Assembly: GCA_963705205.1 (NCBI GenBank)
Contig: CAVPJG010000007.1
Span: 84,336-148,335 of the forward strand
DNA from: an uncultured Thermoleophilia bacterium
GTDB taxonomy: Bacteria; Actinomycetota; Thermoleophilia; UBA2241
Reading direction: 5' to 3'
DNA: 64,000 bases
The notes under the pieces are model-generated. The model searched no databases and was not told where the DNA came from. It saw only the letters and a list, made by a program, of their open reading frames with translations. The translations under genes and the position numbers were made by a program. Positions 7,624 through 36,921 of the stretch are shown here, one piece after another; positions within the stretch are counted from its first letter, which is position 1, and every line of letters begins with the position of its first letter.

Positions 7624-9196
7624 GTCCCTGCTGATGGGGCTGTACACCGCCGACGGCATGCAGAAGGTCGACGGGCTGGCGATCGACGGCATCGGCATCC
7701 CCGGCGGGCACCTGATGGAGCGCGCCGGGCTCGCCGTGGCGACCGAGATCCTCGAGCGGTACGCGCCCGAGGAGGCCGTGGTCTTCGCCGGCAAGGGCAA
7801 CAACGGTGGGGACGGGTTCGTGGTCGCGCGCGAGCTGTTCGATGCGGGCTGCGAGGTCACCGTGTTCCTGCTCGCGGCGCCGGCCGAGTACGGGGGCGAC
7901 GCGAAGCTGAACCTGGACATCCTCACCCGGCTCGGGGTGGACGTGCGCCCCGCGACGGATGGCGACGGGGCGCTCGCCGAGGACGCGATGGTGCTCACGG
8001 AGATGGCCGACGTCGTGGTGGACGCGGTCTTCGGCACCGGCTTCACCGGCGCGGCCAAAGGGCCGGCCGCCGCCGCCATCGAGCTCATGAACGAGGCGCC
8101 TGGCGCCGTGGTGAGCGTCGACATCATGAGCGGCGTCGGCGCGAGCACCGGCGCGGTGCACGGGCCGGCCGTCGAGGCCGACCTCACCGTGACGCTGCAC
8201 GCCGCCAAGGTCGGCCACTTCGTCACGCCCGGGGGCGCGCACTCGGGCGAGGTCGTGATCGCGCCGATCGGCATCCCGGCGCTCTGCGACCAGGACCCGG
8301 GCGTGTGGCTGCTCACCGACGAGGCGATGGGCGAGCTGGTGCTCCCCAAGGGCTCGCTCGACCACAAACGCTCGGTCGGCACGGTCCTCGTCGTCGGCGG
8401 GTCGAAGGGCATGGAGGGCGCCGCCCACATGGCCGCGTTCGCGGCCCTCAGGGGCGGCGCCGGCCTGGTCCACGCCGCGCTGCCCGACGGCGCCGGCGCG
8501 CAGAAGCCGTTCGCCGAGGTCATCACTGTGACCGTCCCCGGCGTCGACGGTCAGTTCGGCATGGCCGCCCGCTCGGCGCTCTTCGCGCAGGCGGACCAGC
8601 TCGGGGCCGTCGCCGTCGGTCCGGGACTCGGCCGTGCCGACGAGGCGCGTTTGCTGGTGCGTGAGCTGCTCGGCGTGGACCGGCCGCTGCTGCTCGACGC
8701 CGACGGCCTGTATGCCCTTGGCGACAAGCTCGAACTCCTCGCGGAGCGCGCGCGGCCCACGGTCATCACGCCGCACGAGGGCGAGCTGGGCCGCCTGATC
8801 GGCCGCCCGGCGGCCGAGGTCGCGGCCCAGCGCCTCGAGTGCGCCCGCTCCGCCGCCAAGCGCGGCGACGTGACCGTCGTCCTCAAGGGCGAGGCGACTA
8901 TCATCGCCGACCCCTCGGGACGGGCCTACGTCGTCCCGACCGGCAACCCCGGCCTCGCTACGCCGGGAACGGGCGACGTGCTCAGCGGTGTCATCGTCGC
9001 CCAGCTCGCGAAGGGCCTGCCGGCCACGGACGCCGCCTGTCTCGGCGCGTACCTCCACGGCTTCGCCGCCGATCTGGCGGCCGAGGAGGCCGTCGGCACC
9101 GAGGCCATGGTGGCGAGCGACCTGTTCCACTCCCTGCCCGCGGCCGTGGAGCGGCTCAAGGCCGGTCCACAGGAGGAGAGCCATGAGCACCACTGA
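7616..9196 (+). CDS. nnr: bifunctional NAD(P)H-hydrate epimerase / ADP-dependent (S)-NAD(P)H-hydrate dehydratase
   Basis: YjeF-N motif GKGNNGGDGFVVAREL and a C-terminal carbohydrate-kinase-like domain (GPGLG ... GTGDVLSGV). The start overlaps the acpS end by 8 nt. Length 526 aa. Confidence 0.9.
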   Translation: MDESLLMGLYTADGMQKVDGLAIDGIGIPGGHLMERAGLAVATEILERYAPEEAVVFAGKGNNGGDGFVVARELFDAGCEVTVFLLAAPAEYGGDAKLNLDILTRLGVDVRPATDGDGALAEDAMVLTEMADVVVDAVFGTGFTGAAKGPAAAAIELMNEAPGAVVSVDIMSGVGASTGAVHGPAVEADLTVTLHAAKVGHFVTPGGAHSGEVVIAPIGIPALCDQDPGVWLLTDEAMGELVLPKGSLDHKRSVGTVLVVGGSKGMEGAAHMAAFAALRGGAGLVHAALPDGAGAQKPFAEVITVTVPGVDGQFGMAARSALFAQADQLGAVAVGPGLGRADEARLLVRELLGVDRPLLLDADGLYALGDKLELLAERARPTVITPHEGELGRLIGRPAAEVAAQRLECARSAAKRGDVTVVLKGEATIIADPSGRAYVVPTGNPGLATPGTGDVLSGVIVAQLAKGLPATDAACLGAYLHGFAADLAAEEAVGTEAMVASDLFHSLPAAVERLKAGPQEESHEHH

Positions 9197-10842: not shown

Positions 10843-12294
10843 GTGAACGTCCGGTACGCCGTCACGCCGCCGACGCCCGACGAGGTCACCCGGGCCGCAC
10901 GCGCGGCGCTGGGCCCCGGCGAAGCCGGCTGGCTGGTGGGCGGCTGCCTGCGCGACGAGCTCCTCGGGAGACGTGTGCGCGACGTGGACATCGTCGTGGA
11001 CGGACGGCAAGAGGCGCTGGCGCGCGCTCTGGCCGACCGCTTCGGCGGCGCCGTGTACTCAACGTCGGACGTCTTCGGCGGCTGGCGGGTGGTCGTCGGC
11101 GACCTGCACATCGACGTCGCCGCGGTGCGCGGCGGGCCGCCCGGCGACCCGCCGGATCCGGCGACGCGCGCCCTCCGTCTGGAGGCGGATCTTCGGGCGC
11201 GAGACGTCACCGTTGACGCGCTCGCGCGCCCGCTCGACGGCGACAGCATCGTCGATCCCCTCAGCGGCCTCTCCGACCTCGCCGCGGGCCGCCTGCGGCT
11301 GTGCTCGCCGGCCTCGCTCGACGACGATCCGCTGCGGGTACTGCGGCTGGCGCGGCTCGCGCGCGCGTTCGAGCTGGTGCCGGACGCGGCGGCCACCGAG
11401 GCGGCTCTCCGCGCCGCACCCGGTCTCGCGCACGTGAGCGGCGAGCGTGTCCGCGACGAGCTCGGCGCGCTCCTCGGTACGCGCGCCGCGCCGGTCGCGC
11501 TCCGTGACCTCGCCGTGTGGGGCGCGCTCGCCGTGATCCTTCCCGAGGTGGACCGCCTGCGCGGCGTGGAGCAGAACCCGTACCACCACCTGGACGTCTT
11601 CGAGCACACGCTCGAGGCCCTCACCTACGTCGTCGGCGTGGTCGCGCAGCTGGGCGGCCGGCGGTTCCTGGCGACGCCGGCGGAGGCCGGCATGCCCGGC
11701 GCCGAGCCGCTCGTCCCCGTCGCGTGGGCCGTCCTTCTGCACGACATCGGCAAGCCCGTCGTGCGCGTGGTCGACGATCAGGACCGGGTCATCTTCTGGC
11801 ACCACGACGAGACCGGCCGCCGGATGTGCGTCGACATCGGTGGACGTCTCGGCTTCAGCAACCGGTTCGTGGAGTACGTCGGCACGCTCGTGCGGCAGCA
11901 CCTGCGGCTCGGGTTCCTCACGCGCGAGCAGCCGCTGACGCGCCGCGCTCTGGCCCGGTACCGGCGTGACGTGAGCCCTTGGGTGTTCGAGTCCGTGGTC
12001 GTCTCGCTCTGCGACCGGCTGGCGACGCGGGGAGAGAAGACGTCGCTCACCTCGATGGCGCGGCACTACCGGCTCGCGCGCACCGCGTGGACGGCGGTGA
12101 GCAAGGCGCCGGCGCCGCAACTGCTGAGCGGCGGCGACGTCATGGAGCTGCTCGGCATCGAGCCGGGGCCGGCGGTCGGCCAGGCCCTGGACGCTCTCGA
12201 GGAGGAGATCGAGGCCGGAGAGGTCACCGACGCGGACGGTGCGCGCGCGTTCCTGCAGCAGTGGTGGCGGCGCGGCGAGACACACGATGCCTGA
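10843..12294 (+). CDS. cca: CCA tRNA nucleotidyltransferase (poly(A) polymerase family with HD domain)
   Basis: Nucleotidyltransferase head (GWLVGGCLRDELLGRRVRDVDIVVDG), the LLHDIGKP HD motif and a C-terminal tRNA-binding region. Length 483 aa. GTG start. Confidence 0.8.
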   Translation: MNVRYAVTPPTPDEVTRAARAALGPGEAGWLVGGCLRDELLGRRVRDVDIVVDGRQEALARALADRFGGAVYSTSDVFGGWRVVVGDLHIDVAAVRGGPPGDPPDPATRALRLEADLRARDVTVDALARPLDGDSIVDPLSGLSDLAAGRLRLCSPASLDDDPLRVLRLARLARAFELVPDAAATEAALRAAPGLAHVSGERVRDELGALLGTRAAPVALRDLAVWGALAVILPEVDRLRGVEQNPYHHLDVFEHTLEALTYVVGVVAQLGGRRFLATPAEAGMPGAEPLVPVAWAVLLHDIGKPVVRVVDDQDRVIFWHHDETGRRMCVDIGGRLGFSNRFVEYVGTLVRQHLRLGFLTREQPLTRRALARYRRDVSPWVFESVVVSLCDRLATRGEKTSLTSMARHYRLARTAWTAVSKAPAPQLLSGGDVMELLGIEPGPAVGQALDALEEEIEAGEVTDADGARAFLQQWWRRGETHDA

Positions 12295-29092: not shown

Positions 29093-30733
<1,641 letters not shown>

Positions 30734-30786
30734 GATAGGGCGTCTCCAGCGAGACACCTCCGAAAGAGCGAGCCTCTTTCGCGTCG

Positions 30787-30823
30787 GCGGCGGGCGGGCC
30801 TCAGGGCCCGCCCGCCGCTTCTT
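30787..30823 (+). terminator. bidirectional hairpin terminator between groEL and the convergent cyclase gene
   Basis: ggcgggcgggcc-tca-gggcccgcccgcc is a 12-13 bp GC stem followed by gcttcttcg. A second upstream hairpin is cgaaagag-cgagc-ctctttcg. Confidence 0.5.
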
Positions 30824-30890
30824 CGTGGGCCGGCGGTGCGTATGCACCGCCGGCCTTCGCCGTTCTCGGGGCTTGCGGCGAGGCCTGCGG

Positions 30891-32333
30891 TCAGTGGGCG
30901 GTGGGCAGGGCGGCGTACAGATGCCACTTCTCCGGCACACCCTTCAGTTCGTGCTCGCCGCGGTCCGCGAAGACGAGGCCCGAACCGGCGACGAGGTCCT
31001 TCACGGTAGAGCTGACGAGGACCTCGGATGGCCCGGCGAGGGCACCCACCCTGGCGCCGATGTGCACGGCGATGCCGCCGACGTCGGCGCCCAGCAGCTC
31101 GATCTCGCCGGTGTGGCAGCCGGCCCTGATCTCGAGGCCGAGTGGCTTCACCGCCTCGCAGATGCCTTGCGCGCACTTCACAGCCCGGGCCGGCCCGTCG
31201 AAGGTGGCGAGGAAGCCGTCGCCGGCGGTGTCGACCTCGGCGCCGCGATAGCGCGCGAGCATCGCGCGCACCACCTCGCGGTGTCGTTCCAGCAACTCGG
31301 TCCATCGCCGGTCACCGAGCTCGCAGGCCTTGTCCGTCGAGCCGACGATGTCGGTGAAGAGCACGGTCGCGAGCATGCGGTCCAGGGTGGCTTCCTCGTG
31401 CTGGACGGACTGGAGGAAGGCGATCATCGCGTCGGCGTAGGCCTCCTCTTGGTCGAAGAAGGGGATCACGGCCGCTCCGGGCACGGTGACGAGGCGGGCG
31501 CCCGGGATAAGCGCGGCATTGTACTCAGCCACGCCGCGATAGGACAAGTCGGCCTGCGAGACGTTCGTCGCCGTATCCTTCGCCGGCCGCCCGAGAGCGG
31601 CGCCGCTGCCCAGCCAGGAAGGCCCGGAGCGCTCTCTCACCAGTACGGCGGCCGGGACGTGGATCGTGCGAGCGACCTCTCGGGCATCGGTCTCATACTC
31701 CGTGCGCGTGAAGGCAAGAAACCCACCGGGGGTGGTGGCGAAGCGCGCCAACCTGGCGTGTACGCGCACGAAATCCTCATCGTGCCAGGGACCATCCTCC
31801 GGACGGTCGCCGCAGGTGAGCTGGCCGATCTCAAGGGAGTGCTCGTCCTGGCCCCAGATCTCGTAGAGTCGGCTTACGAACTCCTCCTCCTCTTCGGGCT
31901 TCGTGCCCCAAGGGTAGTCCGGGGCCCACTTGACCCTCAGCTCGCCGTCGAGCAGCACGGCCAGCGTCTTCTCCGGATACGTCGCAGCGAACATCGCCGC
32001 CAGCGTTGCCGCTTCTCCCCAACCGTAGATCGCGGCTCGCTCGACGCCGGCTGCCGCGAGCACCGCGTTGACATCGTCCAGGCTCCGTTCAAGTGAGGGG
32101 TCGTCCGTGACGCGGTCGGACATGCCCGTGCCTCGGCGGTCGAAGTGAAGCACCCGGAGGCTCGTCGCGAGACGCTCGACGAAGCGAGAGAACTGGGACC
32201 ACTCCCAGTAGACCTCGATGTGCGAGTACATGCCGTTCACAAGAACGAGAGCCGGCCCGCTGCCGATGTCCTGGTAGGCGATGTACAGGCCGTCGGGGGT
32301 CTTCGCGTAGTGGATCGGTGGCGCCTCGGTCAT
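30891..32333 (-). CDS. alpha/beta-hydrolase domain fused to class III adenylate/guanylate cyclase (LipJ-like)
   Basis: ATG 32333 follows a GGGAGC RBS. N-terminal abhydrolase fold (LVLVNGMYSHIE ... GWGEAATLAA). C-terminal CHD cyclase domain (TVLFTDIVGST ... GDGFLATFDG ... RAGCHTGE). Confidence 0.8.
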   Translation of the reverse strand: MTEAPPIHYAKTPDGLYIAYQDIGSGPALVLVNGMYSHIEVYWEWSQFSRFVERLATSLRVLHFDRRGTGMSDRVTDDPSLERSLDDVNAVLAAAGVERAAIYGWGEAATLAAMFAATYPEKTLAVLLDGELRVKWAPDYPWGTKPEEEEEFVSRLYEIWGQDEHSLEIGQLTCGDRPEDGPWHDEDFVRVHARLARFATTPGGFLAFTRTEYETDAREVARTIHVPAAVLVRERSGPSWLGSGAALGRPAKDTATNVSQADLSYRGVAEYNAALIPGARLVTVPGAAVIPFFDQEEAYADAMIAFLQSVQHEEATLDRMLATVLFTDIVGSTDKACELGDRRWTELLERHREVVRAMLARYRGAEVDTAGDGFLATFDGPARAVKCAQGICEAVKPLGLEIRAGCHTGEIELLGADVGGIAVHIGARVGALAGPSEVLVSSTVKDLVAGSGLVFADRGEHELKGVPEKWHLYAALPTAH

Positions 32334-32349
32334 CGGTAGCTCCCGGGTC

Positions 32350-32463
32350 TTAGCCAGCCCCTGGCGACGCGAGGTACGGCCGCCACCTCTCCGGCACACC
32401 CTTCAGCTCATGCTCGCCGCGGTCCTCGAAGACGAGGCCGAAGCCGAGGGGGATGCCGTTCAT
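32350..32463 (-). pseudogene. 37-codon remnant of a cyclase 3' end (MNGIPLGFGLVFEDRGEHELKGVPERW...)
   Basis: A ~50-nt segment at 32383-32432 is ~90% identical to 30925-30975, the true 3' end of the adjacent cyclase. It encodes the same GLVF.DRGEHELKGVPE.W C-terminal motif. It lies between the cNMP-binding gene and cyclase 1. Confidence 0.4.
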
Positions 32464-32487
32464 TTCGCGTCAGCCACGTCCTGGTCC

Positions 32488-33429
32488 TCAGGCGACCGGC
32501 GCTGCCGCCCGTTGCAGGTCGCGCAGGATCTCCACCATGCCGTCGAGCAGGCCGATGGCCATCGCGGGCTCGGCCTTGAGCAGCTTCTGGAAGTCGGCGC
32601 GCGTGATCCTCGCTGTGGTGAGCTCGCCGATCGCCGAGACGGTCGCGGCTCGCGGGGCGCCGTCGATGAGCGCGAGCTCGCCGAAGCAGTCATCCGTGCC
32701 GAGCTCGCGCGAGTGCCCGCTCGGGGTGCGCGCGCGAGCGCGGCCGTTCAGGATGACGTGCATGGAGTCGCCGCGCCCGCCCGCCGCCACGACAGTATCG
32801 CCGTCGGCGAAGCGCTCTACGGTGACGTACTTGCCGAGCTTGTGGAGGTGCTGTTCCGAGAGCGCCGCGAAGACTTCGACGTGGCGCAGGATCATCAGCC
32901 AGCTGAGAGCGTCGATACCTTCAAGAGGCTTGCCCTCGGCTTCTGTCGACGTCGCCTCTTCGGGTTCTGGCCGCTTGCCGACGCGCCCGTGGTCGGGAAT
33001 GCGCTGCGCGTCCACTCGCAGCAGGTCGCGCGCGATCACAGCGACGCCGGGCAGGAGGCCGACGGCCAGGGCGGGCTCGTCGCCGAGGAGCGTGCGGAAC
33101 TCGGTGCGGTCGATGCAGGCCGCCGTCACCGGACCGGCGGCGTTGACCGTCGCCGCTCGAGGCGCACCGTCGATGAGGGAGAGCTCACCGAAGTACTCGT
33201 GCGAGACGAGGAGACGCTCGTTCCCGACGGCGGGCGCGATGAGGACGTCACCGCTCAGTATCACGATGAACGAATCACCCGGCTCGCCCTCGCGCACGAT
33301 CACCTCGCCGTTGCCGTAGCGCTGCACTCTGGCGAGCTCCGCGATCCTCTTCCGGTGCCGCCGCGGCAGCGTCTGGAACAGCGGGGTGCGCTCCAGCGTC
33401 TTCAGATCAGCGGGTGTCATCTCGCTCAT
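32488..33429 (-). CDS. protein with two tandem cyclic-nucleotide-binding (CAP-effector) domains and no output domain
   Basis: ATG 33429 is preceded by AAGGGAGGGA. Two cNMP-binding domains each have FGELSLIDGAPRAATV / FGELALIDGAPRAATV phosphate-binding cassettes. Length 313 aa. Confidence 0.8.
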   Translation of the reverse strand: MSEMTPADLKTLERTPLFQTLPRRHRKRIAELARVQRYGNGEVIVREGEPGDSFIVILSGDVLIAPAVGNERLLVSHEYFGELSLIDGAPRAATVNAAGPVTAACIDRTEFRTLLGDEPALAVGLLPGVAVIARDLLRVDAQRIPDHGRVGKRPEPEEATSTEAEGKPLEGIDALSWLMILRHVEVFAALSEQHLHKLGKYVTVERFADGDTVVAAGGRGDSMHVILNGRARARTPSGHSRELGTDDCFGELALIDGAPRAATVSAIGELTTARITRADFQKLLKAEPAMAIGLLDGMVEILRDLQRAAAPVA

Positions 33430-34837
33430 CGTCCCTCCCTTCGCGATCGCCGGATGGGTCCGGCGACCGGTTGGACTCCGTGGCCGGCGCGCAGAGGTGC
33501 CACGCCTCCGGGATGCCTTTGAAGTGGGCGCCGCGGTCCTTGAACGCATACCGCCGCCCAACAAGAGGCCTCATGTCGACGTGACCAGAGACCTCCGATG
33601 GTCCGGCCAGCGCTCCGACGCGGGCGCCGATGTGCACGGCGACGCCGCCGACGTCGGCGTCCAGCAGCTCGATCTCGCCGGTGTGGCAGCCGGCACGCAC
33701 CTCGAGGCCGAGCTGCCTCACCGCGGTGCAGATGCCCTCAGCGCACTTGACCGCTCGCGCCGGCCCGTCGAAGGTCGCAAGGAAGCCGTCACCTGTCGTC
33801 TTGACTACGTTGCCGCGGTATCTGGCAAGGAACGCGCGCACCGTCTGGTTGTGCTTCTCCAGGAGCTCCGTCCAGCAGGCGTCACCGACTTGGCATGCCT
33901 TGTGCGTCGAGCCGACGACGTCCGTGAACAGCACCGTCGCCAGCATGCGGTCGAGTCCGGCCTCTTCGTGCCGGACGGATTCGACGAACCGTTCGATCGC
34001 CGAGACGATCGCCTCCGGCTCGTTCACCCAGATCACGGCATGGGGTGTCGCGACACCGATCAGCCGGGCTACCGGGATCAGGCTCGCCTCGAATCGAGCC
34101 AGCTCCTCTTCCCGGCGGTCAAGTGAGCTGTAGAGGACGGCCGTGGGCGTCGAGATCGAGCCCAGAAGCGGCCGGATGTCCGTCTCGGTCCACATGCGGT
34201 CGAAGGCCTCGTAGCTCGCTGGGGTCGCAGCGAAGCGGGCCAGCTTCGCGTTCCAGGCGATGAAGTCCGGCTCGTTGTACGGCCTGCATGTGGCTTCGCC
34301 GCCGTCGAGGTAGCCGTCGCTGATGAACGCCCGTGCCTGCTCCTCGCTGCCCCATCCCCTGAGGAGGGCGGCGAGATCGGCCTCGTACTCGTCCTCCGGC
34401 TCTCCCCAGGGGTAGTCGGGCTCCCGCCGGTTGTGGAGCGACCCCCAGTGCACCCAGCACAGCGTGCGCTCGGGGTGTGTGGCGGCAAAGAAGGCCGCGA
34501 GCTCGGGACCGGGCCCGCCCCAGCCGAGAAGCGCGGCTCTCTCCGTGCCGGCTGCGTCCATGACCGCGCGCACGTCATCTGCGAGGACGCCGATGTCGGG
34601 GGTGCCGGCCGCGCGGTCCGACATGCCGATGCCGCGCTTGTCGAAGACGAGGACGCGCAGGTTGCGTGACAGCCGGCGGAGAAAGCGCACGTAGCGTGGC
34701 TGCTCCCAGTACACTTCGAGGTGCGAGACCCAGCCATGTACCACGAGGAGAGTGACGGAGCCTTCGCCCAGGTCCTGGTAGGCGATGCAGGCGCCGTCGA
34801 CCGTCCTGGCCCAGTGAGTCTGTGGGACGTTCGTCAC
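33407..34837 (-). CDS. alpha/beta-hydrolase domain fused to class III adenylate cyclase, paralogue 2
   Basis: Collinear with the 30891-32333 gene (VTNVPQTHWARTVDGACIAYQDLG vs MTEAPPIHYAKTPDGLYIAYQDIG; LATVLFTDVVGSTHKA ... GDGFLATFDGPARAVKCAEGIC). GTG 34837 was chosen by alignment to the paralogue. The upstream 117 codons of ORF 35188 are low-complexity. Confidence 0.7.
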   Translation of the reverse strand: MTNVPQTHWARTVDGACIAYQDLGEGSVTLLVVHGWVSHLEVYWEQPRYVRFLRRLSRNLRVLVFDKRGIGMSDRAAGTPDIGVLADDVRAVMDAAGTERAALLGWGGPGPELAAFFAATHPERTLCWVHWGSLHNRREPDYPWGEPEDEYEADLAALLRGWGSEEQARAFISDGYLDGGEATCRPYNEPDFIAWNAKLARFAATPASYEAFDRMWTETDIRPLLGSISTPTAVLYSSLDRREEELARFEASLIPVARLIGVATPHAVIWVNEPEAIVSAIERFVESVRHEEAGLDRMLATVLFTDVVGSTHKACQVGDACWTELLEKHNQTVRAFLARYRGNVVKTTGDGFLATFDGPARAVKCAEGICTAVRQLGLEVRAGCHTGEIELLDADVGGVAVHIGARVGALAGPSEVSGHVDMRPLVGRRYAFKDRGAHFKGIPEAWHLCAPATESNRSPDPSGDREGRDDERDDTR

Positions 34838-35082
34838 GGCGCGCTCCGGCGCGGCACGGTCTGCATCGGCTGGCCCCTTCGGCGAGTGCAGGGTGGCCTG
34901 TGAACTCACAATAGTGACGTGAGGCACACGGGACAACGGGAGTCCCCGTTGCCGCGCGACAGTCACCACGCTCGCAGCCGCCCCTTGACGGAGAGTCGTA
35001 CGCTCGATAGCGTCCCGGCCATCTGAGGAGCGCCGCTCCGGTCTCGCCCGGCGGCGCGACACGACAGACCGGGGGGTCTCAC

Positions 35083-36921
35083 ATGGCTCGAGCGGACTGC
35101 CGGCGCGGGCGGCGGCGAGCCGTTCCTCGCCCTCATCTTCTTGGTCCACTGCTGGGCCGCGTGCGTGGGCGCGTCTCGGCGCCGGCACCTCGCCCTCGCA
35201 CCCCGGCCGCCGACAAGGTCACGCTGCGCCTCGGCTGGACCGAGAGCCCCCTCAACCTCAATCCCTTCATCGGCTACAGCAACTCCTACGAGATCTGGCT
35301 GCTCAACTACGACACGCTGGTCGCCGTCGGCGCCGACGGGCTGCCGTCAAAGGAGACCGGTCTGGCCGAGGACTGGACGCTCTCGGAGGACGAGAAGGAG
35401 TGGACCTTCAAGATCCGCGAGGGCGTCACGTGGCAGGACGGCGAGCCGCTCACCGCGCGCGACGTCGCCTGGACCTTCAACACCATCATCGAGGAAGAGC
35501 TCAGCCTTGCGGTCTACCTCAAGGACGTGGAGAAGGCGGTCGCCGTCGACGACACCACGCTCAAGGTGTACTGCAGCGCGCCCAAGGCGAACATGCTGCT
35601 CACGCAGGTCTACATCTACATCCTGCCGGAGCACATCTGGGGCAAGCTCAGCGCCGACGAGATGAGCAACACCTTCCGCAACCCGCTGCCGATCGTAGGG
35701 TCGGGCCCGTTCCAGACGGTGGAGTTCAAGAAGGATGGGTACGTCAAGATGGTCCGCAATCCGACGTACTGGGGCCAGCAGCCGACGATCGACGAGGTCA
35801 TCTTCCAGTACTACACCAACTCGGACACGATGGTGCAGGACCTCAAGAGCGGGGCCATCGACGGCGCCCAGGTCATCCCAGCTACGCAGTTCAAGCAGTT
35901 GCAGAGCGAGCCCGGGATCGAGGCGATCCCATACCCGCTGTACAACTGGGAGTACATCGACATCAACTGCTACGACAGCCCGGACTCGCTTGGCAATCCG
36001 GTGCTGCGCGACCCCACGTTCCGCGTGGCCATGGCGTGGGCGATCGACCGCGAGAAGTGCGCGAGCCTCGCCTGGAACGGTCTCGCCGACCCCGGGTACG
36101 GCATCTTCCCGAAGAAGGGCTGGCCCGAGACGGCGAACCCCTACTACCAGCCGGACGCGGCGAACACCATCGGCTTCGACCTCGAGAAGGCGAAGGGGCT
36201 CATGGACGAAGCCGGCTACAGGGACGCTGACGGCGACGGCGTCCGTGAGGACAAGAAGGGCGAGCCCATCAAGCTCCGCCTGTGGGCGCGCGACATCTCG
36301 CCCGAGAGCCAGGTGCAGGGCAAGCTCATCGCCGGCTGGCTGCAGGACATCGGCCTGGAGATCGACTACTCGGTCGTGGACGAGGGCGCGCTCGGCGACG
36401 ACATCTGGAACTACAAGGGTGACACCTACGCGCCCGACTACGACCTCGCGCTCTGGGACTTCATGGGCTACATCGACCCCGGCGACTCCGCCGCCTGCTT
36501 CACCACCGACCAGATCGAGAACTACAACGAGATGAACTGGTCCAACGCGGAGTACGACAGGCTCACCGTGGAGCAGTACCGCGAGATGGACACGGCGGCG
36601 CGCATGGAACTGCTCAAGCAGGCGCAGGGCGTGATGTACGCCGAGCAGCCGATGATCGTCATCGACTACCCGTCGGTGCTGCAGGCCGTGGACACCTCGC
36701 GGTGGGAGGGCTGGCAGCCGTACGTCGGTGGCAGCGTGTGGAACAACTTCCTCGACCGTCAGAGCTACCTGGAGCTGAAGCCGAAAGCGGCGACAGCGGC
36801 GAGTGACGAGGGCGGGTCGTCGGTCCTGGCGTGGGTCCTCGTCGGCGTCGCCGCGTTCGTCGGCGCCGCGATCGTGGTCTGGCTGAAGCGTCGCGGCTCC
36901 GGGCGCGCGGTCGAAGAGTGA
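35083..36921 (+). CDS. ABC transporter substrate-binding protein, family 5 (peptide/nickel/opine type), with C-terminal transmembrane anchor
   Basis: SBP_bac_5 fold (LRLGWTESPLNLNPFIGYSNSYEIWLLNYDTLV ... GPFQTVEFKKDGYVKMVRNPTYWG). The C-terminus SVLAWVLVGVAAFVGAAIVVWLKRRGSGR is a TM helix plus basic stop-transfer. No clean signal peptide is present in this frame; a hydrophobic FLALIFLVHCWAAC segment sits in the +1 frame at 35120-35165. Confidence 0.75.
   Translation: MARADCRRGRRRAVPRPHLLGPLLGRVRGRVSAPAPRPRTPAADKVTLRLGWTESPLNLNPFIGYSNSYEIWLLNYDTLVAVGADGLPSKETGLAEDWTLSEDEKEWTFKIREGVTWQDGEPLTARDVAWTFNTIIEEELSLAVYLKDVEKAVAVDDTTLKVYCSAPKANMLLTQVYIYILPEHIWGKLSADEMSNTFRNPLPIVGSGPFQTVEFKKDGYVKMVRNPTYWGQQPTIDEVIFQYYTNSDTMVQDLKSGAIDGAQVIPATQFKQLQSEPGIEAIPYPLYNWEYIDINCYDSPDSLGNPVLRDPTFRVAMAWAIDREKCASLAWNGLADPGYGIFPKKGWPETANPYYQPDAANTIGFDLEKAKGLMDEAGYRDADGDGVREDKKGEPIKLRLWARDISPESQVQGKLIAGWLQDIGLEIDYSVVDEGALGDDIWNYKGDTYAPDYDLALWDFMGYIDPGDSAACFTTDQIENYNEMNWSNAEYDRLTVEQYREMDTAARMELLKQAQGVMYAEQPMIVIDYPSVLQAVDTSRWEGWQPYVGGSVWNNFLDRQSYLELKPKAATAASDEGGSSVLAWVLVGVAAFVGAAIVVWLKRRGSGRAVEE

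Follow-up and report, generated by a model that had tools for sequence, protein, structure and literature searches.

A conserved cAMP gene cluster of LipJ-like cyclases and a tandem cNMP-binding protein in an uncultured Thermoleophilia bacterium, with the probable scar of a third cyclase gene

The closest described counterpart of the cyclases considered here is Mycobacterium tuberculosis LipJ, also named Rv1900c (structures 1YBT and 1YBU), in which an alpha/beta-hydrolase domain is joined to a class III cyclase domain. On the side of the receptors for cyclic AMP (cAMP), the RI-alpha regulatory subunit of protein kinase A (PKA) carries two consecutive cyclic nucleotide-binding (CNB) domains, CNB-A and CNB-B, and effector-less cAMP-binding proteins built from CNB/CAP-type domains are known in bacteria, namely CbpA of Pseudomonas aeruginosa and CbpB of Myxococcus xanthus. 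Could a cyclase of the first kind and a receptor of the second belong to one and the same system? A candidate is found in a stretch of 64,000 nucleotides (hereafter the window) of contig CAVPJG010000007.1, from an uncultured Thermoleophilia bacterium (Actinomycetota). On its minus strand lie two LipJ-like genes, cyc2 (33407-34837, 476 amino acids from a GTG start) and cyc1 (30891-32333, 480 amino acids from an ATG start), while between them a third gene (32488-33429) encodes a 313-residue tandem CNB protein. The mechanical open reading frames (ORFs) of the two cyclases extend further upstream, reaching 35188 and 32399, respectively. We describe this locus as a three-gene chromosomal cAMP-signalling operon of a soil bacterium of the Thermoleophilia. 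Its proteins are of known kinds, and the operon arrangement itself was not found described. We are highly confident of the anatomy and the evolutionary reading of the cluster, taken jointly, and consider the explanation as a whole reasonably probable.

The two cyclases share the two-domain architecture of Rv1900c. Pfam recognizes Abhydrolase_6/Abhydrolase_1 and Guanylate_cyc in cyc1, and Abhydrolase_1 and Guanylate_cyc in cyc2, where the cyclase match ends at profile position 109 of 183. The NCBIfam LipJ model NF058673 aligns over positions 5-448 of its 449, both proteins matching it along their full length, and the cyclase domain of cyc1 matches the Rv1900c structure 1YBT with E=3.5e-56. An earlier note on this DNA, made from the letters alone, had placed two such proteins (abhydrolase at the N-terminus, class III cyclase at the C-terminus) head-to-tail on the minus strand with a gene for a cyclic nucleoside monophosphate (cNMP)-binding protein between them. 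ORFs, Pfam, NF058673 and 1YBT all agree with that description, and the domains to be searched for, Abhydrolase, Guanylate_cyc and cNMP_binding, were all found. The likeness to Rv1900c has its limits: the NF058673 scores of 340.3 bits for cyc1 and 307 bits for cyc2 lie far below the equivalog cut-off of 800 bits, so that both are homologues of LipJ and not its equivalogs. Rv1900c also differs in its setting, since here tandem paralogues stand in an operon with a putative cAMP receptor.

In the alignment with 1YBT, the metal-binding Asp pair (FTD and GDG) and the Arg are kept in both cyclases and in all paralogues, and the same holds for the motif VHIGAR, in which the LipJ-type His replaces the catalytic Asn. 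The substrate-Lys position, Asn342 in Rv1900c, is occupied by Asp in cyc1 and by Lys in cyc2. Since N342 and H402 of Rv1900c are reportedly dispensable for adenylyl cyclase activity, the active-site residues of cyc1 and cyc2 would be compatible with activity. The cyclase fold is intact through its C-terminal strands in cyc1; in cyc2, 16 invariant residues are replaced. Comparison with relatives (loci are cited below by our own labels, L001 and the like) sorts the paralogues into orthology groups: an “up” group that includes cyc2, which is 67-72% identical to the “up” genes of L085, L086, L083 and L002; a “downstream A” group that includes cyc1, 86-89% identical to L085_dn and L002_dn1; and a “downstream B” group made of L086_dn1 and L083_dn. 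Self-BLASTN of 30001-35600 gives 79% identity between the two cyclase domains (31013-31418 against 33582-33988), 65% between the hydrolase 5′ parts of the two genes, and 69% between the two CNB domains of the 313-residue protein. No paralogue of the cluster genes was found in the 64-kb window outside 30.9-34.9 kb.

The hydrolase domains depart from what the name “lipase” in LipJ implies. In four alignments with PDB structures (3R0V, 1EHY, 1ZOI and 8V16), a Gly falls on the nucleophile Ser/Asp, within the motifs GWGEA in cyc1 and GWGGPG in cyc2, so the Ser of GxSxG is lost from both; nearly all paralogues carry GWG, and in cyc1 the His of the triad is missing as well. From the exchange of the nucleophile Ser for Gly, we infer that both hydrolase domains are catalytically dead pseudo-enzymes, and that the two proteins are not “bifunctional lipases”; the pseudo-hydrolase domains are presumably regulatory or sensor modules. 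The hydrolase domain of cyc1 also contains an insertion of about 30 residues rich in Gly, Ala and Ser (residues 236-266, 31536-31628; SGPSWLGSGAALGRPAKDTATNVSQADLSYR), which is found in most “downstream A” paralogues, is shorter in L002_dn3, and is absent from the other groups.

The protein encoded between the two cyclases consists of two cNMP_binding stretches (Pfam, E=6e-35) and belongs to a family with at least 377 homologues of 310-330 amino acids. Its phosphate-binding cassettes lie at residues 80-95 in CNB-A (33145-33192, minus strand; FGELSLIDGAPRAATV) and at residues 249-264 in CNB-B (32638-32685, minus strand; FGELALIDGAPRAATV). Both read FGEL(S/A)LIDGAPRAATV, as in PKA RI-alpha (shared pattern FGELALI.G.PRAATV), and are essentially invariant in 29 homologues; the cassette G, E, L, P, R and A are strictly so, and the conserved Glu and Arg are found in both domains. 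Both cAMP pockets are thus predicted to be canonical. An AlphaFold2 (AF2) model (predicted local distance difference test, pLDDT, 84.8; predicted template-modelling score, pTM, 0.81) fills the chain with two CNB folds of the beta-barrel type, between which a long helix and a disordered stretch (142-160) form the connection. Neither Pfam nor this model reveals any domain beyond the two CNB folds, and hence any output domain, in the 313-residue protein, in agreement with the earlier note, which had seen two CNB domains and no effector. A transcription factor of the CRP/FNR type was considered and rejected: Pfam finds no helix-turn-helix family, the second half being another CNB domain, and the NCBIfam CRP match covers the CNB part only and stays far below its cut-off.

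How close, then, is this protein to a PKA regulatory subunit? Its best PDB matches, by profile (E~1e-44) as well as by fold, are the regulatory CNB tandems of PKA and PKG, and the consecutive CNB-A and CNB-B domains recall RI-alpha. The chain, however, begins about 5 residues ahead of the first CNB helix in the AF2 model, leaving no N-terminal dimerisation/docking domain and no inhibitor sequence; a partly disordered linker of about 40 residues replaces the contiguous B/C helix; the domain arrangement differs, with a global template-modelling (TM) score of about 0.35 against PKA R structures; and no kinase partner is evident. Within the linker, the sequence IPDHGRVG (residues 144-151; 32977-33000, minus strand) corresponds to a motif with the consensus PDHGxVG(xW), which is kept in the cyclase-linked subfamily although the rest of the linker is variable. 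This stretch is predicted to be disordered (pLDDT 33), and the motif is absent from distant tandem-CNB homologues, including that of L003, which has no cyclase within 6 kb. The PDHGxVG motif is thus a candidate docking motif. CbpA and CbpB, compared by description only, resemble the protein in being stand-alone and effector-less CNB/CAP-type proteins; what sets the present case apart is the operon with LipJ-like cyclases and the linker motif specific to the Thermoleophilia subfamily.

The argument for a functional unit comes mainly from the conservation of the cluster. The contigs of eleven CNB homologues were fetched one by one through exact-protein look-ups. A scan of the genome collection with peptide patterns from the CNB alignment (FGELxLxDG) proved too generic: most of what it gave were distant CNB proteins of other phyla, L002 and L008 being its only useful results, and for distant loci automatic ORF picking was used only for the clear cases L003, L088, L089 and L090. 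The closest relatives are metagenome-assembled genomes labelled Thermoleophilia (Actinomycetota). The cyclase/CNB/cyclase cluster occurs in at least 11 related Thermoleophilia contigs, usually convergent with groESL, with 0 to 3 downstream cyclase copies. The typical order, in which a divergent SBP_bac_5 gene is followed by the upstream cyclase, the CNB gene, the downstream cyclase and the convergent groEL-groES, is found in L085, L086, L083/84, L082, L089 and L090, while L088 and L091 carry the same cyclase/CNB module in other genomic contexts. In the closest relative, L002, the array is expanded: the “up” gene and the CNB gene are followed by three further LipJ-like cyclases and then by a second, diverged CNB gene (44% identity), whose start lies at 11185-11560, at the end of the contig. 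Across the syntenic loci, CNB identity drops to 55%. A distance of about 30-50 nt separates the CNB gene from the flanking cyclase genes in those loci whose gene calls or junction sequences were inspected.

Further away, two LipJ-like genes also precede the CNB paralogue of L008, which is only 32% identical, and remote tandem-CNB proteins from other phyla lack a cyclase within 6 kb, as do some paralogues in Thermoleophilia. At every locus of the CNB subfamily itself, at least one LipJ-like cyclase is adjacent, and this is the main evidence that the CNB protein and the cyclases are functionally coupled. A different transcription unit for the binding protein, which by the earlier note would have told against its reading, is not what is seen: the genes are co-oriented, overlap or are separated by short distances, and keep their order in relatives. 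By the same comparisons, the cluster is a hotspot of paralogue gain, loss and exchange, and two features of the window itself, a 37-codon ORF and the 3′ end of cyc2, illustrate this well.

The 37-codon ORF (32350-32463, minus strand) encodes 37 amino acids and lies within the 154 nt that separate the CNB stop from the cyc1 start. The earlier note had drawn attention to a segment of about 50 nt shared by this ORF and the end of cyc1. Self-BLASTN supports the repeat (30915-30980 against 32374-32439, 89% identity over 66 nt, E=1e-19), whose length is actually 66-73 nt. The ORF is also present in an independent contig, L001 (Logan assembly, SRR27943083), which matches window positions 33531-32225 at 99.85% over 1307 nt with no gaps. 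Given its 89% nucleotide identity to the 3′ end of cyc1, the ORF could be a local duplication or gene conversion of that end, with no gene lost; since this 3′ end varies so little from paralogue to paralogue, its source is hard to assign. A duplicated end would not, however, account for what surrounds it. From the remnant through the start of cyc1, the sequence follows entire cyclase-cyclase junctions of L086 and L002 colinearly, with the same succession of 3′ end, stop, spacer of about 16 nt and next start (16 nt from the scar stop to the cyc1 ATG in the window). The 5′ end of the ORF and the bases upstream of it align with the start regions of downstream cyclases in L083 and L089 (GGCTGACG in L083; MNDPPK in L089 compared with MNGIPL in the window). 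The tail is identical to L086_dn1 at 20 of 23 residues and to cyc1 at 18 of 23, and bears the E, R and R of L086_dn1 in place of the A, K and H of cyc1. Finally, in L086, where the order is up, CNB, B, A, the intact B-type gene L086_dn1 stands exactly at the position of the remnant.

From these colinear junctions, the start-region match and the L086_dn1-like tail, the 37-codon ORF is best read as the scar of an in-frame internal deletion in a third, B-type LipJ-like paralogue. In this scar, the native start and about 5 codons would be joined to the last 31 or so codons and the native stop. A duplication of the cyc1 end is, in our estimation, highly improbable; the earlier note, which had invoked recombination or duplication among paralogues, was right in its general idea of recombination and not in seeing a copy of that end.

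The deletion scar has analogues in relatives. In L088 (9022-9231), a fusion of N- and C-terminus of 69 amino acids follows the CNB gene; in L082 (about 7726-7970), the “up” (upstream) cyclase gene is collapsed to a relic; and in L083 (8982-9578), a cyclase-only product of 198 amino acids is left, the hydrolase domain having been excised. All four relics, that of the window included, form a single ORF from native start to native stop, where chance would leave about one-third in frame. At the upstream end of the operon, a leader ORF of 10 codons (34834..34866, minus strand; MQTVPRRSAP and a stop) has its own GAAGGGG ribosome-binding site, and its TGA overlaps the GTG start of cyc2 (GTGA). Seven loci (the window, L002, L082, L083/84, L085, L086 and L087) have such a leader, always exactly 10 codons long and overlapping the cyclase start as ATGA or GTGA. 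Its length, ribosome-binding site (GAAGGGG/GGAGGGG) and overlap are kept, and the peptide varies from locus to locus (MQTVPRRSAP, MRSTSQENAR, VKVASRRSAP, MACAPQEVAR and others), so that it looks like a translational-coupling leader. The relics kept as one ORF, together with this leader, hint that translational coupling constrains which deletions survive.

The 3′ end of cyc2 is aberrant in another way. Among 15 aligned paralogues and orthologues, the window cyc2 is the only one to depart from the invariant stretch LV[ST]STVKDLVAGSGL. Its scrambled segment (33544..33592, minus strand) encodes SGHVDMRPLVGRRYA, where other paralogues read LV[ST]STVKDLVAGSGLx. The 13 other full-length sequences keep GPSEVLV[ST]STVKDLVAGSGLxFxDRGEHxLKG, with the exception of the obviously frameshifted L086_dn2; cyc2 reads GPSEVSGHVDMRPLVGRRYAFKDRGAHFKG there, its ancestral stop is lost, and the frame runs 23 nt into the CNB gene, whose start is preceded by a Shine-Dalgarno sequence, GGAGGGACG (a GGAGG-type ribosome-binding site). 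At the DNA level, a stretch of about 50 nt has taken up a +1 insertion, a number of small deletions and many substitutions relative to the orthologues, and the frame stays open. The diverged copy of the cyclase C-terminal segment that the earlier note had placed at the end of cyc2 does exist, but it spans 33488-33592 and includes this locally scrambled stretch, which is more than divergence.

Could the aberrant end be an error of assembly or sequencing? Related metagenome contigs do show obvious frameshifts, and the full segment in the window configuration is known here from one assembly. It would, however, be a strange error that placed several indels and many substitutions within about 50 nt and still left the reading frame open, and L001, an independent contig, has the 3′ part of the scramble as well; an artefact is thus very unlikely. 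The neighbouring sequence points instead to recombination. In a sliding window, 34880-33900, with the first 1 kb or so of cyc2, is 90-98% identical to L087 and only 43-82% to L002, whereas the CNB gene is 83-96% identical to L002 and only 60-80% to L087, the similarity switching from L087-like to L002-like around the scrambled segment. L001, near-identical to the window downstream of 33531, has no cyc2. In its place stands a promoter-type sequence, CCTACGTTGTC...CATGACTATTGTTGGG, which matches the promoters of L085 and L082, and within L001 1-185 this promoter-type sequence (TTGTCT-17-TATTGT) abuts the last 100 nt or so of cyc2. The junction segment of L001 and the scrambled segment of the window (33531-33600 region) are identical in 42 of 49 aligned columns. 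Because of the similarity switch and the likeness to the L001 junction, the cyc2 scramble is tied to a recombination junction, and is lineage-specific rather than the product of ordinary paralogue divergence. The data fit a re-import of cyc2 into a haplotype that lacked it as well as its deletion from a window-like haplotype.

What might such an operon do? In the explanation that we favour, the cyclase domains of cyc1 and cyc2 would make cAMP as Rv1900c does, and the tandem CNB protein would be a dedicated receptor binding two cAMP molecules per chain through its canonical cassettes. As it has no output domain, the receptor would relay the signal through cAMP-dependent contacts with other proteins; its likeliest partners would be the co-encoded cyclases, which would give product feedback, and the contact may be made through the conserved but disordered PDHGxVG motif of the linker. 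For the CNB protein, the role of a cAMP receptor that works through contacts with other proteins seems to us an even bet, and that it acts specifically on the neighbouring cyclases is a possible but tentative extension; the conservation of the operon and of the linker motif favours partner binding.

The lack of an output domain could also mean that the protein needs no partner. As a passive sink or buffer, roles that the earlier note had put forward beside that of a partner-switching regulator of the neighbouring cyclases, it would simply cap the free cAMP made by the flanking cyclases, which would suit its two canonical sites per chain and its co-expression with cAMP sources, as judged from the operon structure. 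Effector-less cAMP-binding proteins have a precedent in Actinobacteria, the abundant mycobacterial universal stress protein (USP) Rv1636 being a conceptual analogue of such a buffer (PMC11107214). A buffer would nevertheless need high protein abundance, and a short conserved motif in a variable and disordered linker is more typical of a docking site, which leaves this alternative rather doubtful.

Another alternative keeps the partner and moves it elsewhere: the CNB protein would be a PKA-R-like regulator of a remote protein, for example a Ser/Thr kinase, and the cyclases would only supply its ligand. The top matches in sequence and fold, all PKA/PKG regulatory CNB tandems, speak for it, as does the interaction reported between CbpB of Myxococcus and SpkA, cited in PMC11139211; titles cited there present CbpB as a homologue of the PKA regulatory subunit. 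No kinase gene is present in the conserved neighbourhood, though, the chain has no N-terminal docking or inhibitor segment, starting as it does a few residues ahead of CNB-A, and the inter-domain geometry is unlike that of PKA R (TM about 0.35). We regard a remote partner as decidedly unlikely.

A cyclase next to a cNMP-sensing protein also brings to mind the Pycsar-type antiphage systems, and the PADLOC models PycTIR and PycC do give matches here. For the binding protein, these matches are confined to the CNB portion of PycTIR and of the TIR-effector models, and a killing domain (TIR or membrane effector) is absent; for the cyclases, the PycC matches are marginal (E 1e-4 to 9e-3) compared with 1e-101 for the LipJ model. 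With a stable housekeeping synteny beside groESL across many genomes in addition, the likeness to Pycsar components is at the domain level only. The defence-system reading was rejected and is scarcely credible.

Several points weigh against the receptor-cyclase coupling and the recombination history proposed above. Adjacency speaks for functional linkage, not for physical interaction, and function is deduced here from sequence and comparison. The correlation between linker motif and cyclases is based on few loci, and the linker of the window has lost the otherwise common Trp (GKR instead of GEW), as have those of its closest relatives. With 16 core residues replaced, cyc2 may be impaired, in which case the two-cyclase design may not operate in this strain. 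Many of the contigs used for comparison come from metagenome bins and seem to be frameshifted (L084, L086_dn2 and L087), so assembly error may lie behind some of the “decay” in relatives, and the cyc2 junction is compatible with recombination in either direction.

Pushed to its furthest consequence, the coupling of receptor and cyclases would yield a self-contained cAMP homeostat, in which the loaded receptor docks by its PDHGxVG motif on the dead hydrolase domain or on the cyclase dimer and throttles or activates synthesis. The CNB protein would then correspond, in bacteria, to a regulatory subunit of the PKA-R type, with the cyclase itself in the place of the “catalytic subunit”, and the in-frame relics and the 10-codon leader would be retained through the operon's dependence on translational coupling. 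This extended form we consider unlikely.

If the coupling is true, the operon would be a compact and testable case in which a dedicated cAMP receptor conveys product feedback directly to a bacterial adenylyl cyclase, and the enigmatic hydrolase-like domain of the LipJ-type enzymes would gain a role. As it stands, a conserved cAMP gene cluster is documented in an uncultured soil lineage, along with a clean example of how the gain, exchange and deletion of tandem paralogues leave in-frame mini-ORFs behind, relics that risk being mis-annotated as small proteins. Nothing at the locus contradicts current knowledge; the scar would be an ordinary deletion in a recombination-prone array of paralogues.

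The remaining elements complete the minus-strand order, which runs from the promoter through the leader ORF, cyc2, the CNB gene, the scar and cyc1 to terminator hairpins facing groEL, the groES-groEL neighbours having been identified by colinearity with annotated relatives. Upstream of the operon, a promoter-like element, TTGTCC-17 nt-TATTGT (34908..34936, minus strand), is proposed as a candidate promoter by comparison with relatives: the same -35/-10 arrangement recurs 5′ of the orthologous first cyclase in L002, L082, L083, L085, L086 and L087. A generic sigma-70 promoter scan did not include this element among its matches. The matches that the generic promoter and terminator scans did give, one internal promoter-like sequence and one weak terminator, were set aside, neither being conserved. 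Between the convergent groEL and cyc1, self-BLASTN reveals as inverted repeats two G+C-rich perfect hairpins (30787-30818 and 30828-30855), with stems of 12-15 bp on both strands according to RNAfold; placed back to back, they likely close the operon as bidirectional terminators. An Rfam scan of 30600-35300 at E<=0.1 returned no RNA family, and hence no known riboswitch or leader RNA. The G+C content of the window is about 70%. At third codon positions it amounts to 0.83-0.86 in the three operon genes, compared with 0.93 in flanking genes such as groEL and the SBP_bac_5 gene, a lower value as would fit a cluster that recombines and is expressed at a low level, with codon usage that is relaxed or of another kind.

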